The position numbers and the translations under genes were made by a program. The notes beneath the pieces are model-generated. The model had not been told where the DNA came from, made no database searches, and saw only the letters and a program-made list of their open reading frames with translations. From NCBI RefSeq assembly GCF_988243305.1, contig NZ_OZ547136.1: a stretch of DNA of 64,000 bases; one strand, written 5' to 3'. Shown piece after piece: positions 25,113-57,638 of this stretch (positions are counted from its first letter, which is position 1; every line of letters starts with the position of its first letter).

Positions 25113-25225
<113 letters not shown>

Positions 25226-50399: not shown

Positions 50400-50831
<432 letters not shown>

Positions 50832-50833
50832 TC

Positions 50834-51745
50834 TTAAATCCCCGCCCCCTGGCTAAAGTGTTCTTCCCCAAACACGCCGGTGGAGAGGTAGCGATCGCCG
50901 CGATCGCAGATGATCGCCACAACCACCGCGCCGGGGTTAGCTTTTGCCACGCGCAGTGCTCCGGCAACCGCGCCGCCGGAGCTAACGCCACAGAATATTC
51001 CTTCCCGCACCGCCAGTTCACGCATGGTGTTTTCCGCATCGCTCTGATGAATATCCAGCACCTCATCCACCAGCGAAGCGTTGAAAATCCCCGGCAGATA
51101 TTCCGCAGGCCAGCGGCGAATGCCGGGAATGCTACTGCCCTCTTCCGGCTGCAGGCCAACAATGGTCACCGGTTTGGATTGTTCGCGCATAAAGCGTGAA
51201 ACGCCGGTGATAGTGCCGGTTGTTCCCATGCTGGAGACAAAATGGGTAATGCGCCCGCCGGTTTGCTGCCAGATTTCCGGCCCGGTGGTGGTGTAATGGG
51301 CGTAAGGGTTATCAGGATTATTGAACTGATCGAGCAGCTTTCCTTCGCCACGATTCGCCATCTCCAGCGCCAGATCGCGCGCACCTTCCATGCCCTGCTC
51401 TTTGGTGACAAGAATCAGTTCCGCACCATAAGCACGCATCGCCGCACGGCGTTCCTGGCTCATGTTGTCGGGCATCAGCAATTTCATGCGATAGCCTTTA
51501 AGCGCGGCAATCATTGCCAGCGCAATGCCGGTGTTACCACTGGTGGCTTCGATCAGCACGTCACCCGGTTTAATTTCCCCGCGCTTTTCCGCCTCGACGA
51601 TCATCGAAAGCGCCGCACGATCTTTCACCGAACCTGCCGGGTTATTGCCTTCCAGTTTTAACCACACTTCACTGCCGTTATCCGGCCCCATTCGCTGCAA
51701 CTTCACCAGAGGCGTATTGCCAATTGTTTGTTCTAATGTACTCAC
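50834..51745 (-). CDS. cysM: Cysteine synthase B (O-acetylserine sulfhydrylase B)
   Basis: ORF 50834-51823; I prefer the GTG at 51745 (V/M-STLEQTIGNTPLVKL...). 303 aa. Confidence 0.9.
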   Translation of the reverse strand: MSTLEQTIGNTPLVKLQRMGPDNGSEVWLKLEGNNPAGSVKDRAALSMIVEAEKRGEIKPGDVLIEATSGNTGIALAMIAALKGYRMKLLMPDNMSQERRAAMRAYGAELILVTKEQGMEGARDLALEMANRGEGKLLDQFNNPDNPYAHYTTTGPEIWQQTGGRITHFVSSMGTTGTITGVSRFMREQSKPVTIVGLQPEEGSSIPGIRRWPAEYLPGIFNASLVDEVLDIHQSDAENTMRELAVREGIFCGVSSGGAVAGALRVAKANPGAVVVAIICDRGDRYLSTGVFGEEHFSQGAGI

Positions 51746-51768
51746 GATCTCTATCCATACGTGGTGTT

Positions 51769-51804
51769 GCCTGATGCGACGCTTGCGCGTCTTATCAGGC
51801 CTAC
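51769..51804. repeat. REP element (GCCTGATGCGACGCTTGCGCGTCTTATCAGGCCTAC) between cysA and cysM
   Basis: Canonical REP palindrome in the cysA-cysM intercistronic gap. Confidence 0.8.
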
Positions 51805-51878
51805 AGGTTACAAACCTTGCCATTAAAAAGCCCGGATCGCGGGAAGCGCCTCCGGGCGTTTAACATTCACTCAACCTA

Positions 51879-52976
51879 TCAGGCGCTTTGTGCGAGAGCA
51901 AGTTCCTCATCGCGGGTTTCAATACGCTCGTCGCCGTTATACAGCCGCGCATGTTGCAGACCAACGAATAAACGCTCGCCACGTTGCGGGGCGTCGTCGC
52001 CGTGCATCACGACCGTCAGCGCTTCGTTGTACCACCCCAGCGGCTGCACGACTAATTGGGTGTAGTGGCCTTTCGGGCTGGCTTCCAGTACCTGTACCGG
52101 CAGCGGCGAATCGAGGCTGGTACGGCGGCTGATATCCACTTCCCACGGGCGCAGGAAGAGATCCACCGGCCCCTGATACGCAGGTGTATAGCCCAGCGGC
52201 CAGCGATGTGCGCCAACATGGAACTGCCCGCCGCGAATGGTTCCCTGCAGGCGGTTCACTTCGCCCATAAATTCGAGCACAAAGCGGGTCGCTGGTTCGC
52301 GCCATACCTGATCCGGCGCATCAGCCTGCTCGATATTGCCCTGGCTCATCACCACTACACGATCGGCTACTTCGGTCGCTTCTTCCTGGTCATGGGTCAC
52401 GAATACGCTGGTAAATTTCAGTTCTTCATGCAGTTGACGCAACCAGCGACGCAGCTCTTTACGCACCTGCGCATCCAGCGCGCCAAACGGTTCATCAAGC
52501 AGCAGAATTTGCGGTTCTACAGCAAGCGCACGCGCCAGCGCCACACGCTGTTTCTGCCCGCCGGAAAGCTGCGCCGGATAACGATCCGCCAGATGGGCAA
52601 GCTGGACCATCTCGAGCAATTTTGTCACTTTCGCTTTGATAGCTGCGGCATTCGGGCGCTCGCGACGCGGCAGCACCGTCAGGCCAAAAGCGATATTGTC
52701 GAACACCGTCATATGGCGGAACAGCGCGTAATGCTGAAACACGAAACCGACTTTACGATCGCGCGCATGCAGGCGGCTGACGTCGGTGCCGTGGAAGCGA
52801 ATATGCCCGCTGGTTTGATGCTCAAGCCCGGCGATAATCCGCAGCAGCGTGGTTTTCCCGGAACCAGACGGCCCCAGCAATGCGACCATCTGACCAGAAG
52901 GAATATCCAGTGAGATATCGTTCAGCACCTGGGTGCGACCAAACGACTTCTTAATATTGGCAATCTCAATGCTCAT
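51879..52976 (-). CDS. cysA: Sulfate/thiosulfate ABC transporter ATP-binding protein
   Basis: 365 aa ORF with Walker A (GPSGSGKTT), ABC signature (LSGGQKQR) and Walker B (LLLDEP). Confidence 0.95.
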
Positions 52977-53841
52977 GATGTTCCTCCTGCTGCGCGCGTT
53001 TTTCCTGATTCTCCAGACGCCACTGCAACATACTCTTTAAAAACAGGGTGATAATCGCCATCAGCGTCAACAACGCGGCAGCGGTAAAGGAGCCGACGGT
53101 GTTGTAGTCTTGCTCCAGCAATTCAATCTGTAGCGGCAGCGAAAGTGTTTCGCCGCGAATCGAGCCGGAAACCACCGACACCGCACCAAACTCGCCAATC
53201 GCGCGGGCGTTGGTCAGCACCACGCCATAAAGCAGCGCCCAGCGGATGTTCGGCAGCGTGACGCGGCGAAACATCTGCCAGCCAGACGCGCCAAGCAAAA
53301 TCGCCGCTTCGTCTTCCTGGCTGCCCTGGCTTAACATCACCGGCACCAGCTCACGCACCACAAACGGACACGTCACGAAGATGGTGACCAGCACCATTCC
53401 CGGCCAGGAGAACATAATTTGCAGATTATGTTCATCCAGCCAGCCACCGAGCGGGCCGTTAGAGCCGTAAAACAGCAGATACACCAGACCGGCAACCACC
53501 GGCGACACGGCAAACGGAATGTCCAGCAGCGTCAGCAGCAACTGGCGTCCGGGGAAGTTAAAGCGCGTCACCAGCCAGGCCAGCAGAATGCCGAACACCA
53601 GGTTCACCGGCACGGCAATCAGCGCAATCATCACCGTCAGCCAGATGGCGTGCAGCATGTCCGGATCGGCCAGATTCTGTAAAACTGGCATCAGCCCTTT
53701 GCTGAATGCCTGCACGAAGATGTAAATCATCGGCACCAGCAGGATGAACGCCGAAACCAGCATCCCGATGCCAATCAGAAACCATTTGCCCCAGTTAATC
53801 GGGCGCGCGTCATAACGCTTCAATTGGGTAACTTCCGCCAT
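52966..53841 (-). CDS. cysW: Sulfate/thiosulfate ABC transporter permease
   Basis: 291 aa permease ORF; its start overlaps the cysU stop by 1 nt. Confidence 0.9.
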
Positions 53842-54674
53842 TAATGACCTACCACACGCCGACCAAAGCGACTTTGCAGAGTGTTAATTGAGAACAGCAG
53901 CAGCAGGGATGCCGCGAGGATCACCGAAGCAATCGCGCTCGCCGCCGGGTAATCAAACTCCTGCAAGCGCACAAAAATCATCAGCGACGTCACTTCCGTC
54001 TTCCAGGCAATGTTCCCGGCGATAAAAATTACCGCGCCAAACTCACCGAGGCTGCGGGTAAACGACAGCGCCACGCCCGCCACCAGCGCCGGAGAAAGCT
54101 CCGGCAGCACCACTTTGCAGAAACTCTGCCAGCGCGTTGCGCCGAGCGTTTCCGCCGCTTCTTCATATTCCGGGCCTAACTCTTCCAGCACCGGCTGCAC
54201 GGTACGCACCACAAACGGAATACTGGTAAAAGCCATCGCCACCGCAATCCCCAGCCAGGTATAGGTAACTTTGATATCAAACTTCGCCAGCCATTCACCG
54301 TAAAAACCGTTCACGGAAAAGAGCGAGGCCAGCGTCAAACCGGCGACTGCCGTTGGCAGCGCAAAGGGTAAATCCATCAGCGCATCAAGCAGCGTGCGGC
54401 CCGGAAAGCGATAACGGGTTAAGATCCACGCCATCAGCAGGCCGAAAACGCCGTTAAAAATTGATGCCACAAACGCCGACAGCAGCGTCACTTTGTAGGC
54501 CGCGACCACTTGTGGGTTGGTGATCACCTCCCAGTACTGCGCCCAGCTCATCTGAGCCAGCTGCATCACCAGCGCGGAGAGCGGCAGCAGCAAAATAAGG
54601 CACACAAACAGCAGACTGGTGCCGAGGCTTAAGGTAAAGCCCGGCAGCACGCGTCTTGATGAAACTGCAAACAT
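53841..54674 (-). CDS. cysU: Sulfate/thiosulfate ABC transporter permease
   Basis: 277 aa permease ORF; its start overlaps the cysP stop by 1 nt. Confidence 0.9.
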   Translation of the reverse strand: MFAVSSRRVLPGFTLSLGTSLLFVCLILLLPLSALVMQLAQMSWAQYWEVITNPQVVAAYKVTLLSAFVASIFNGVFGLLMAWILTRYRFPGRTLLDALMDLPFALPTAVAGLTLASLFSVNGFYGEWLAKFDIKVTYTWLGIAVAMAFTSIPFVVRTVQPVLEELGPEYEEAAETLGATRWQSFCKVVLPELSPALVAGVALSFTRSLGEFGAVIFIAGNIAWKTEVTSLMIFVRLQEFDYPAASAIASVILAASLLLLFSINTLQSRFGRRVVGH

Positions 54675-55690
54675 TAATTACGCCCCGCCGCTAACAGCTT
54701 GTCTAACTCGCCGCCGCTGGTGAAGTGGGTTTTCATCACTTCCGGCCAGGAGCCAAATTTGTCTTCCACGCGGAACAGTTCGGTCTGCGGGAATTTGTCT
54801 TTCAGTTTGTCCATGACTTCCGGGTTATTTACGCGGTAGTAATAGTCGGTGATGATGGTTTGCGCCTGCGGGCTGTAGAGCCAGTTCAGGTAAGCTTTTG
54901 CTGTTTTTTCCGTACCGTTGGCCTGCACGTTTTTATCGACCCACGCCACCGGGAATTCCGCCAGAATATTGGTTTTCGGAATCACCACTTCAAAGCCTTG
55001 CGCTTCATACTGTTTGCGAATGTTGTTCACTTCCGATTCAAAGCTAATCAGTACATCGCCCAGCCCGCGCTCGGCAAAAGTGGTGGTCGCGCCACGACCG
55101 CCGGTATCGAACACTTCAACGTTTTTCAGGAACTGGGTCATAAACTGTTCGGTTTTGGCTTTGTCGCCACCGTCAGCTTTATCCGCTGCGCCCCATGCCG
55201 CCAGATAGGTATAACGCGCGTTACCCGACGTTTTCGGATTCGGGAAAATCAGCTTCACGTCGGAGCGCACGAGGTCGTTCCAGTCGTGAATATTCTTCGG
55301 GTTGCCCTTACGCACCAGGAAGCCCATGGTGGAGTAGAACGGCGAGCTATTATTCGGCAGGCGCGACTGCCAGTCGGCCGGGATCAGCTTGCCTTTATCG
55401 TGCAGGATTTGTACGTCGGTCACCTGGTTATAAGTGACAACGTCGGCTTTTAAGCCCTGTAAAATCGCCAGCGCCTGTTTTGATGACCCGGCATGTGATT
55501 GTTTTATCGTCAGTTTGTCGCCGCCGTTATCTTTTGCCCATTGTTGCTCAAACGGCGGATTCAGGGCGGCAAACAGCTCGCGGGAGACGTCATAAGAACT
55601 GTTCAGCAGTTCCGTTGCCTGTACATGGCCCGCCAGCAGCAGAGAAGCGACCAGCGCGAGTGAGTTCTTTTTCAGTAAGTTAACGGCCAT
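54674..55690 (-). CDS. cysP: Periplasmic thiosulfate-binding protein
   Basis: 338 aa ORF with a signal peptide; sulfate/thiosulfate-binding protein family. Confidence 0.9.
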
Positions 55691-55860
55691 TGCGCACCCT
55701 TATAAATTTAATGACTTTCTAATAGCCATCATATTTATAACGGACGTGAAAGGAGTAACGGTTTTATATACCGTTTGGTGATTTGGAAGTTGAAAAGGGA
55801 ATAAGAACCGGGTTCAAGACGAAATCCTCCCCACAAATGCAGGGAGGAAACAGAGGTGAA

Positions 55861-56652
55861 TCAGATGCCGACGCTAACCGTCTCCGGCAGTGTGCTGCCG
55901 CCATCAATCACATTCTGTGTACCGGTTAAATAACTTGATTCATCCGATGCGAGGAAGGCTGCCAGTTCGCCGACTTCCAGCGGATCGGCGAGGCGACGCA
56001 TCGGGATTGCTTTTGCCATTTCAGTCAGCACCGATTCTGGATCTTCCGGGTTCGACTGGCGGGCAATGCTTTCCGCCATTGGCGTGCGAACGTATCCCGG
56101 GCAGATGGCGTTAACGCGAATACCAGACTGCGCGTACTCCACCGCCAGCGATTTAGTCAGGCCAACAATCGCCGCTTTCGTTAAGGCATACGCCGTTTCA
56201 CCCGGATCGGCCACCATATCGCCAGTGACTGAAGACATCATCACAATGCGACCATCTTTGCGGGCAATCATCTCCGGCAGCACCGCCTTCGTGACGTTCC
56301 ATACGCCTTTAATATTGATATCAATATGGAAATCGCGATCTTCATCGCTCATATCGAGGAAACTGCCCAGACGACAAACGCCTGCGTTATTCACCAGAAT
56401 ATCAATGCGCCCTTCTTTTTCCTTCGCGCGCTTAATAGCTGCGGCTACCGACGCCGGGTCACGCACATCGGCGACAACCGCCGTACAGCGATGACCACGA
56501 CCACACAGTTCGTCCGCCAGCTTTTCGATCTCAGGGGAGATATCCAGCAAGATTAGGTTTGCGCCATGACGCGCAAAAGTTCTGGCAATTCCTTCGCCAA
56601 TTCCCTGCAATGCGCCCGTAATCAGTGCTGTCTTGCCCGTGAGTTTACCCAT
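55861..56652 (-). CDS. ucpA: Short-chain dehydrogenase/reductase (SDR) oxidoreductase
   Basis: ORF 55861-56718; I prefer the ATG at 56652 (MGKLTGKTALITGALQGIG...). Rossmann TGxxxGIG motif; 263 aa. Confidence 0.85.
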   Translation of the reverse strand: MGKLTGKTALITGALQGIGEGIARTFARHGANLILLDISPEIEKLADELCGRGHRCTAVVADVRDPASVAAAIKRAKEKEGRIDILVNNAGVCRLGSFLDMSDEDRDFHIDINIKGVWNVTKAVLPEMIARKDGRIVMMSSVTGDMVADPGETAYALTKAAIVGLTKSLAVEYAQSGIRVNAICPGYVRTPMAESIARQSNPEDPESVLTEMAKAIPMRRLADPLEVGELAAFLASDESSYLTGTQNVIDGGSTLPETVSVGI

Positions 56653-56780
56653 TTTAATGCTCTCCTTGTTAATACAGAGCGTTACACTCCATTCCCTCTG
56701 AAAATACAGGATAAACAAAATATTGCTGCGGATCAGCTCACTAATTCAGGAAAATCTCAATCCAGTCGCTGCTTTATGCA

Positions 56781-57638
56781 TCATTTCAGGCGTTGCGTTA
56801 GCTCACTGCTGCGCTCAATCATTTTCAATGACTCCACATCATTGAGTTGCACAAGGCCAACAAACAGTAAATCGGTAACAGAATTTTGCGCCGTGCGGGT
56901 GGACATCGACGAGCTGCGCCATTCGGTTTCGCCAGAAACGGTATCGAGAGTGTAATGCGCCAGCCGCCGCAGCGGGGAATCGGTTAATGAGGTAATGGCA
57001 ATCACCGTTGCCCCCTGCTTTCGCGCTGCCTCGGCGCACAAGACAATCTCTTTTTTACTGCCGCTGTAAGAGATAGCGATTTGTACATCGCCTTTTTTCA
57101 GCGCCTGGGAAACGGTGGCTTGTACATGCGTGTCAGCTTCACAGGCCACACGATAACCAATTTTCATCAGTTTGAATGAAAGATCGCGCCCCACCAGCGC
57201 CGACCCGCCCAGGCCCGTTATCTGGATAAATGGCGCTTTACTGATGACCTCAATGATTTTTTGCAGCCGCGCGTAGTCGAACAACGCGCAGGTTTGCTCC
57301 AGCGCCAGCTCTTTTTCGCGATTCAGTTTGCGGGCAATCACTTCCAGCGAATCATCACTGGTAATCGAACTGTGCAGGTGCAGCGCCGTGGCATTCGTTT
57401 TCTCCCGGCTGGCACTGTATTCGCCAATTAACGCCATACGCAATTCAGTAAATCCTTGCGCGCCGAGCTTCTGGGCAAATTTCACAATGCTCGACTGACT
57501 GATGCCGAGCTGTTTCGCCATCTTGCGCGAAGAGACGGATTTCAGCTCACTCACGTTGGCCCGCAGAAAGTCAGCAATTTTTTGCTCGTTCTCGGTAAAT
57601 TCACTTTCCGCATTGCGTATTTTCGTCAGGTACAACAT
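56781..57638 (-). CDS. murR: RpiR/MurR-family regulator (HTH plus SIS domain) of murQP
   Basis: ORF 56781-57893; I prefer the ATG at 57638 ([14 protein letters not shown]...). 285 aa, divergent from murQ. Confidence 0.85.

Follow-up and report, generated by a model that had tools for sequence, protein, structure and literature searches.

The closest described relative of the locus analyzed here is the cysPUWAM (cysPTWAM) operon of Escherichia coli K-12, whose sequence reportedly comes from the work of Sirko and colleagues in 1990 (J Bacteriol 172:3351). REP elements protect upstream RNA against 3′ exonucleases, as work on malE-malF is reported to have shown, and Liang, Rudd and Deutscher reportedly found in 2015 that REPs no more than 15 nt from a stop codon lower upstream translation. 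Short overlaps are the commonest same-strand gene junctions in E. coli and support termination-reinitiation; genes whose products join in heteromeric complexes are enriched 4.5-fold among them (PMC10666635). Both the reinitiation and the unfolding models of translational coupling have been reviewed (PMC12548453), and in other E. coli gene pairs coupling drops steeply as the distance between genes grows (Huber et al.; PMC10666635). The cysPUWAM genes are treated in the literature as a single five-gene polycistronic unit (PMC3082872).

The window, a stretch of 64,000 nucleotides from contig NZ_OZ547136.1, contains a standard Escherichia cysPUWAM operon on its minus strand, already known and encoding a sulfate/thiosulfate transporter together with CysM. 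Its genes are cysP (55690-54674), a periplasmic thiosulfate/sulfate-binding protein of 338 aa (NF008106, 724 bits against a cut-off of 308, residues 1-338); cysU, also called cysT (54674-53841), a permease subunit of 277 aa (NF008208 equivalog, 581 bits, cut-off 415, residues 1-277 of 277); cysW (53841-52966), a permease subunit of 291 aa (NF008620 equivalog, 619 bits, cut-off 442, residues 1-291 of 291); cysA (52976-51879), the ATP-binding subunit of 365 aa (NF008105 equivalog, 754 bits, cut-off 502); and cysM (51745-50834), cysteine synthase B of 303 aa with a GTG start (TIGR01138, 563 bits, cut-off 394, and NF008735, both equivalogs). All five proteins thus score above the cut-offs of their NCBIfam models over nearly the full length. 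The locus has the full composition of this importer: its binding protein belongs to the CysP/Sbp family, its permeases CysT(U) and CysW are paralogs of each other, its ATPase is of the CysA type, and cysM follows downstream. CysM is here the thiosulfate-specific cysteine synthase beside the CysP binding protein, the CysU/CysW permeases and the CysA ATPase.

The K-12 operon and this locus agree in their five genes, in gene order, in protein lengths and in the RefSeq junction coordinates, and we found no substantial difference between them. The RefSeq annotation of an E. coli chromosome 98.7% identical to the window shows identical genes (cysT = cysU), gene order and junction geometry. No complete E. 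coli genome in our collection exceeds 98.7% identity to the window across 6.1 kb, indicating that the locus is an ordinary allelic variant. A 329-aa ATG reading frame for cysM (50834-51823) was considered and rejected as a mechanical artefact because the frame extends across the REP and other species lack it; a start at 51745 rather than 51823 is favored by RefSeq, by NCBIfam and by the conservation of the GTG. An Rfam search of 50600-56900 returned no riboswitch or sRNA family, giving only a sub-threshold partial match to naRNA4 and a chance miRNA match.

We think it highly probable that this standard operon works as follows: the overlaps permit coupling, Shine–Dalgarno (SD) strength sets output, and the cysA-cysM spacer holds a leaky terminator or protective 3′ end to which a REP-bearing insertion was later added in Escherichia.

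Overlaps between the transporter genes

The first-pass annotation had described 1-nt overlaps at cysP/cysU and cysU/cysW and an 11-nt overlap at cysW/cysA, and all three were recovered when we re-counted the sequence and compared it with the RefSeq geometry. The cysP stop and cysU start form TAATG at 54672-54676 (minus strand), sharing the nucleotide at 54674, and the cysU stop and cysW start form TAATG at 53839-53843 (minus strand), sharing 53841. The cysW/cysA overlap is ATGAGCATTGA at 52966-52976, minus strand. The interval 52966-55690 that had been assigned to this arrangement does cover cysP to cysW; the last overlap reaches 52976, however, and the cysA-cysM spacer falls outside the interval.

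Junction spacing was counted in 77 Enterobacterales species, with 75 or 76 usable per junction. Spacing at cysU/cysW is -1 in 75 of 76 species, written as TAATG in 48 and as TGATG in 27. At cysP/cysU, where the stop is TAA or TGA, it is -1 in 63 of 75 species, 0 in ten, -4 in one and +2 in one, the ten 0-nt cases reading TAAATG in Citrobacter-type species and relatives. The 11-mer at cysW/cysA, and with it the -11 spacing, is identical in 75 of 76 species. Because the median identity of cysW third-codon positions across the 77 species is 68%, conservation of this geometry goes beyond chance.

The arrangement resembles the coupled pairs of Huber et al. (2019, 2023) in being co-directional, in its two -1 overlaps (TAATG or TGATG) and in joining genes whose products assemble into a single membrane complex. 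Both -1 junctions lie inside the co-directional class of -8 to +10 nt, which those authors treat as predictive of termination-reinitiation, whereas the -11 spacing of cysW/cysA falls just outside it. Unlike those pairs, the three junctions have unequal outputs (0.18x, 0.74x and 7.2x). Each downstream start codon and its predicted SD sequence lie within the upstream gene. Anti-SD pairing energies are moderate for cysU (-6.1 kcal/mol) and cysW (-6.2 kcal/mol). The AGGAGG of cysA at 52983-52988 (minus strand), located within the 3′ end of cysW and 6 nt before the ATG, pairs at -10.3 kcal/mol, placing it in the top 0.7% of all 20-nt windows across the operon by pairing strength; the motif CAGGAGG is kept before cysA in most species.

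From this geometry we infer translational coupling at the cysP/cysU/cysW/cysA junctions, in which a terminating ribosome would re-initiate at, or open, the next start site. Downstream translation would then depend on upstream translation without a fixed 1:1 ratio. The unfolding model, with local RNA structure masking the downstream starts, was tried and received no specific support, since base-pair probabilities leave the cysU, cysW and cysA starts no more sequestered than average (P(unpaired) 0.42-0.57 against 0.42-0.45 overall).

The overlaps might instead have arisen neutrally, through genome compaction and stop/start mutation, and be kept only by the double codon constraint, without a role in expression. 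The 0-nt junctions in the Citrobacter group, a cysW/cysA spacing of +20 in Proteus, annotated alphaproteobacterial operons with spacings of +3/+1/+13, +8/-11/+10 and +1/+3/-43, and an SD of its own for each downstream gene are all consistent with this idea. Against it, the -1 geometry was kept through a change of stop codon from TAA to TGA in 27 of 75 species at cysU/cysW and 9 of 63 at cysP/cysU, all junctions stay at or below 20 nt even in distant taxa, and the steep dependence of coupling on distance has been demonstrated experimentally for other gene pairs of E. coli. We therefore regard neutrality as unlikely.

The cysA-cysM spacer

The stop codon of cysA ends at 51879 and the GTG of cysM begins at 51745, leaving a spacer of 133 nt (51878-51746). 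The length of this spacer and the position of a REP within it (51769-51804) had been given correctly by the first-pass annotation. The spacer also holds a terminator-like hairpin, GCCCGGAGGCGCUUCCCGCGAUCCGGGC (51857-51830, minus strand), followed by UUUUU (51829-51825), a feature the earlier annotation does not mention. In the minimum-free-energy fold it lies ahead of the REP, begins 21 nt past the cysA stop, and alone has a predicted free energy of -17.7 kcal/mol. A GC-rich hairpin running directly into a U-run is the sequence form of an intrinsic terminator, making 51857-51825 a candidate terminator.

An equivalent hairpin and T-run was found in 72 of 75 species when each sequence was folded separately. 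The T-run usually lies 13-20 nt ahead of the cysM GTG, with a median gap of 14 nt. Stem sequences differ among lineages, and a subgroup alignment contains one stem pair with CG/GC covariation. RNAalifold returned no consensus structure for the full set of 63 pre-cysM spacers since the hairpins are not homologous from one lineage to the next. A consensus terminator scan left the hairpin at 51857-51830 uncalled, its loop being interrupted and the scan's loop criterion being 3-8 nt. No entry for cysA, cysM or cysW occurs in the supplements of the published RNA 3′-end mapping by Adams et al. (2021). The element is similar to internal leaky intrinsic terminators in its GC-rich stem (about -16 to -18 kcal/mol), its 5-7 U residues and its conserved position before a less-expressed distal gene. 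It differs in being a candidate only and in a U-run unusually close to the ribosome-binding region of cysM, at 13-20 nt in most species. Taken together, the recurrence and form of this element suggest that it probably terminates transcription or stabilizes RNA, and this old conserved element after cysA would most likely be a leaky intrinsic terminator, a protective 3′ end of the cysPUWA mRNA, or both.

The REP is a later addition. A segment of about 65 nt (51758-51822, minus strand, boundaries uncertain by a few nt) lies between the U-run and the ribosome-binding region of cysM and appears as a single insertion when aligned with 37 other Enterobacteriaceae; among the 80 species compared, the REP-bearing insertion is restricted to E. 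coli and E. albertii. Their spacers measure 133-134 nt, against 66-70 nt in the shortest-spacer species, which have the hairpin and T-run only. Within E. coli the insertion is fixed, with 5420 of 5426 complete genomes carrying the spacer at 95-100% identity. The insertion carries a single REP at 51769-51804 (minus strand), made of a palindrome at 51769-51800 and a GTAG/CTAC tail to 51804, with the canonical ...CAGGCCTAC orientation on the plus strand. As expected of a REP, it is an imperfect palindrome of about 35 nt of the GCCTGATGCGACGC...GCGTCTTATCAGGCCTAC type, extragenic and multicopy. A palindrome search of the window located one further copy at 25113-25144 with one mismatch, where none was expected by chance, and E. 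coli genomes have a median of 5-6 matching places. The partial naRNA4 match (a REP-derived RNA) had an E-value of 3.7e-4. The REP, which we take to be of the Z2 subtype, folds into a stable hairpin of -20.5 kcal/mol.

As with the REP stabilizers of the malE-malF type, a lone REP here forms a stable hairpin between two cistrons, and the genes upstream of it are the more highly expressed ones. Unlike those stabilizers, it is a lineage-specific insertion past an older hairpin and U-run, and the expression step is small (0.64x). It begins 74 nt past the cysA stop, well beyond 15 nt, and thus falls outside the class that reduces upstream translation. The insertion may give further 3′-end protection, with cysM translated from read-through RNA by way of its GTG and weak SD.

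Alternatively, the hairpin and U-run could be a dedicated control of the CysM-to-transporter ratio (e.g., a conditional terminator, a processing site, or a U-rich, SD-independent ribosome landing site) that was re-spaced by the Escherichia REP insertion. This idea draws on a placement shared by nearly all Enterobacterales, 13-20 nt ahead of the cysM GTG, and on stems that are non-homologous between lineages. We hold it to be doubtful, and favor a leaky terminator or protective 3′ end.

Synthesis rates across the junctions

Dataset EV6 of Mori et al. (2021) tabulates the ribosome-profiling results that Li et al. (2014) obtained for K-12, and in copies per generation the synthesis rates are 2281 for CysP, 419 for CysU, 308 for CysW, 2214 for CysA and 1411 for CysM. 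Output therefore changes 0.18x across cysP/cysU (a 5.4-fold drop) and 0.74x across cysU/cysW, and rises 7.2x across cysW/cysA. Only CysU and CysW are made in near-equimolar amounts. CysA:CysU:CysW synthesis is approximately 7:1.4:1 rather than the 2:1:1 of the complex, with CysA made at 5-7 times the level of the permeases. The mass-spectrometry abundances of Mori et al. leave CysW or CysU undetected in most samples, so they do not cover permease stoichiometry.

These rates limit what ribosome hand-over can contribute. On the profiling ratios, at most 18% of ribosomes terminating on cysP can be handed over to cysU. At most 308 of 2214 CysA initiations (no more than 14%) can come from cysW, meaning that at least 86% cannot be hand-over and that CysA must be made mainly by a route other than reinitiation. 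Synthesis follows the SD pairing energies (-6.1, -6.2, -10.3 and -3.1 kcal/mol for cysU, cysW, cysA and cysM) and not the overlaps. Most likely the strength of each downstream site sets the output of its junction: the SDs of cysU and cysW are of moderate strength, and cysA has a strong AGGAGG, which would recruit mostly fresh ribosomes.

CysM is synthesized at 64% of CysA despite its GTG start, which is conserved in about 70 of 75 species, and despite SD pairing of -3.1 kcal/mol, which is weak and no stronger than background. This level suggests that the hairpin and the REP remove little transcript, or that cysM has another source of RNA.

The first-pass annotation had read the overlaps as tight stoichiometric coupling within the transporter and had placed a REP-modulated step before cysM, which on this proposal would set a lower level for cysM. 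Part of this reading stands, since compact and conserved overlaps are typical of coupled subunit genes (PMC10666635). The conserved geometry, the enrichment of overlapping pairs for complex subunits, the similar synthesis of CysU and CysW, and a stable REP fixed in E. coli that could protect upstream RNA all fit the proposal. Equal stoichiometry, by contrast, is already contradicted by the profiling figures, which differ across junctions of the same type (CysP/CysU 2281 against 419; CysW/CysA 308 against 2214, where 1:2 was expected) and leave only CysU/CysW in proportion. A REP-modulated step, as it was stated, lacks support, because the REP is confined at this position to Escherichia, while the hairpin and U-run are nearly universal and CysM is only about 36% below CysA. 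As a whole the proposal is quite unlikely. Proportional output was part of that earlier claim and does not strictly define coupled pairs.

Finally, it is very unlikely that the hairpin fully terminates the cysPUWA transcript and that cysM is effectively a separate unit transcribed mainly from its own promoter: the good hairpin and U-run directly after cysA, a CysM rate that is high for a GTG start and weak SD, and an AT-rich stretch of about 140 nt between hairpin and cysM in Proteus are in its favor, but the 13-20 nt from T-run to cysM start in most species are too short for a promoter, so that any cysM promoter would lie upstream of the hairpin and its transcripts would read through it too, the literature treats the genes as one operon, and a promoter scan of the minus strand at 50600-56000 detected no promoter-like site and nothing relevant except the ucpA terminator, a weak test because the CysB-dependent cysP promoter escapes the same scan.

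The profiling rates show overlaps without equal protein output, which makes the finding an ordinary one. It matters little beyond offering a textbook example of conserved stop/start overlaps in an ABC-transporter operon whose protein output is not equalized, in which similar junctions span 0.18x to 7.2x and track SD strength. A modestly useful by-product is that the conserved element of the cysA-cysM spacer is the hairpin and U-run, with the REP a later, Escherichia-specific insertion; this comparison would guide 3′-end mapping or the design of deletions at cysA-cysM.

Identity and junction geometry of the cys operon

Five adjacent minus-strand genes between positions 55690 and 50834 of the window constitute the known cysPUWAM operon, which is reportedly the one sequenced by Sirko et al. 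in 1990. Its transcription is CysB-dependent and yields a single transcript. Reading of the sequence placed cysP at 55690–54674, cysU (cysT in RefSeq) at 54674–53841, cysW at 53841–52966, cysA at 52976–51879, and cysM, with a GTG start and 303 aa, at 51745–50834, all on the minus strand. The products CysP, CysT/CysU, CysW, CysA, and CysM gave near-full-length NCBIfam model matches far over the curated cut-offs, and RefSeq annotates the region as cysP-cysT-cysW-cysA-cysM between ucpA and yfeK. A 329-aa, ATG-start cysM frame in the mechanical ORF list (50834–51823, minus) was rejected because it runs through the repetitive extragenic palindrome (REP) upstream of cysM; the conserved GTG at 51745 is the real start. 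The genes are regarded as a single polycistronic operon (PMC3082872; PMC4977825).

Of 5426 complete E. coli genomes, 5423 carry the 6.1-kb region (50700–56800), none matching it at more than 98.7% identity, yet the 193-nt cysA–cysM spacer stretch is 100% identical in some strains, so the cys region appears to be an E. coli allele that is either somewhat divergent or mosaic. Directly after ucpA, and ~135 nt before cysP begins, lies a 10-bp hairpin, TCCTCCCTGC...GGGGAGGA, with a T-rich tail (55825–55848, minus), presumably the ucpA terminator, insulating the cysP promoter.

The first-pass annotation had described overlaps of 1, 1, and 11 nt followed by a 133-bp cysA–cysM gap with a REP at 51769–51804. 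A direct recount bears this out: cysP/cysU and cysU/cysW each share one base in TAATG, cysW/cysA share the 11 bases ATGAGCATTGA, and RefSeq coordinates reproduce both the overlaps and the spacer length, so all of these figures are right. To place the geometry among relatives, a CysW scan taking one genome per species provided 80 Enterobacterales loci (79–100% protein identity), in each of which the five genes were placed by tblastn and the start codon taken as the one aligned to residue 1. Spacing (negative for overlap) at cysP/cysU was −1 in 63 of 75 loci, 0 in 10, −4 in 1, and +2 in 1; at cysU/cysW it was −1 in 75 of 76 and +2 in the other, and at cysW/cysA −11 in 75 of 76 and −4 in the other. 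Switching between TAA and TGA stops leaves the geometry intact (at cysU/cysW, TAATG in 48 and TGATG in 27). At its third-codon positions, cysW has a median identity to the window of only 68% across the species compared; the ATGAGCATTGA 11-mer and the CAGGAGG upstream of it are nearly invariant. In more distant taxa, tight junctions are kept but the exact spacing pattern is not, with −1/−1/+20 in Proteus and +3/+1/+13, +8/−11/+10, and +1/+3/−43 in three annotated alphaproteobacterial operons. The overlap pattern is thus real and, as judged from sequence comparison, under constraint, yet entirely typical: no class of gene junction is commoner in bacteria. Overlaps of −4 and −1 are the commonest at E. 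coli same-strand junctions, ~24% of same-strand pairs fall within −8 to +6, and complex subunits are 4.5-fold enriched among such pairs (Huber et al. 2023).

Synthesis rates and initiation across the junctions

The same annotation had read the overlaps as tight stoichiometric coupling of the transporter, with profiling ratios as the proposed check. K-12 ribosome-profiling synthesis rates from Li et al. 2014 are tabulated in Mori et al. 2021 Dataset EV6 (MG1655, MOPS-glucose minimal medium) as the product of molecular mass and copies per generation; division by the listed masses returned exact integers, which we took as copies per generation. These were 2281 for CysP, 419 for CysU, 308 for CysW, 2214 for CysA, and 1411 for CysM, and they contradict tight stoichiometry, although the conserved overlaps remain an architecture of the coupling type. 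Output drops 5.4-fold across the 1-nt cysP/cysU overlap, is about equal (0.74) across the 1-nt cysU/cysW overlap, and rises 7.2-fold across the 11-nt cysW/cysA overlap, leaving the permeases CysU and CysW as the only near-equimolar pair. CysA is made at 5–7 times the rate of CysU and CysW, well over the quoted [CysA]2[CysU][CysW] (2:1:1) of the assembled transporter, which amounts to an excess of the ATPase subunit.

Outputs across the junctions agree with computed Shine–Dalgarno (SD) pairing energies of −5.1 (cysP), −6.1 (cysU), −6.2 (cysW), −10.3 (cysA), and −3.1 kcal/mol (cysM). The cysA SD is among the strongest 0.7% of operon windows, and cysM combines a GTG start with the weakest of the five pairings. 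Because a ribosome terminating at cysW re-initiates once at most, hand-over can account for at most 308 of 2214 CysA initiations (14%), and the remainder are necessarily fresh. Two models of translational coupling, unfolding and reinitiation, have been reviewed (PMC12548453). Structure prediction across the operon revealed no specific burial of downstream starts, so the unfolding model gains no particular support here, and reinitiation is a plausible candidate route at cysU and cysW.

The cysA–cysM spacer

Two hairpins form in the predicted fold of the 133-nt spacer, whose energy is well below that of shuffled controls (z = −3.1). The one nearer cysA, GCCCGGAGGCGCUUCCCGCGAUCCGGGC (51857–51830, minus; −17.7 kcal/mol), begins 21 nt past the stop codon of that gene, and UUUUU (51829–51825, minus) comes directly after it; this terminator-like element (51825–51857), which lies ahead of the REP, was missed in the first-pass annotation. 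The second is the REP itself (51800–51769, minus; −20.5 kcal/mol), whose palindrome spans 51769–51800 with a GTAG/CTAC tail extending to 51804. A near-identical copy, one base different, lies at 25113–25144 of the window (0 expected by chance), and Rfam reports a partial match to the REP-derived naRNA4 family. At 74 nt from the stop codon, the REP falls outside the class lying within 15 nt of one, and it is ordinary among E. coli REPs generally.

Among the species compared, spacer length runs from 66 nt up to 227 nt. In 72 of the 75 Enterobacterales species a T-rich run follows a GC-rich hairpin (median −16 kcal/mol), and in the remaining three the T-run after the hairpin is interrupted. Stem sequence is lineage-specific: GGGCGGGA...TCCCGCCC in Pantoea and Erwinia types, GCGGCC...GGCCGC in Cedecea and Buttiauxella, and REP-like GCC(C/G)GG...CC(G/C)GGC stems, some as an inverted pair, in Citrobacter, Enterobacter, and Klebsiella. 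One stem pair switches between CG (23 sequences) and GC (14) in an alignment of 39 Enterobacteriaceae spacers, in which E. coli has the common ~67-nt spacer plus a single ~65-nt insertion (~51758–51822) bearing the REP. Of the species sampled, E. coli and E. albertii alone have an E. coli-type REP at this site; in E. coli the entire spacer is fixed (5420 of 5426 genomes). Between the end of the T-run and the cysM GTG there are 14 nt at the median (usually 13–20 nt), too few to hold a promoter.

A metagenome-assembled genome labelled Pseudocitrobacter (CAJYVI010000176.1) encodes a CysW 100% identical to that of the window beside a 117-nt, paired-REP spacer of Enterobacter/Kluyvera type, a mismatch that could be recombination or a chimeric bin. 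Unusually long spacers occur in Cedecea colo (207 nt), with the GCGGCC hairpin twice and an AT-rich insert in between, and in Yersinia thracica (227 nt), where the spacer contains no more than a weak hairpin (−6.6 kcal/mol).

Expression from cysP to cysM

A REP-modulated step before cysM had also been proposed. The REP is present, but it is a lineage-specific add-on, and the widespread hairpin with its U-run is instead the conserved candidate. The step itself is small: even with a far weaker start site, CysM synthesis reaches 64% of the CysA rate. Microarray thresholds on a log scale (cysM ~9, cysP ~10.5; PMC4977825), confounded by probe effects, hint at lower cysM RNA, and our search of published data found no 3′-end mapping of this site.

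We propose that one transcript is translated from cysP on, and that a minority of ribosomes terminating at cysP/cysU and cysU/cysW would start the permease genes. Alternatively, ribosomes may be drawn to moderate SDs at cysU and cysW held open by upstream translation; either route would yield the two permeases at low and similar levels. At cysW/cysA, the strong SD within the CysW tail would draw mainly new ribosomes, raising CysA. Past cysA, a leaky terminator-like hairpin may pass most polymerases to cysM, mark a stable 3′ end of cysPUWA RNA, or both, and in Escherichia the REP would add a second stable hairpin.
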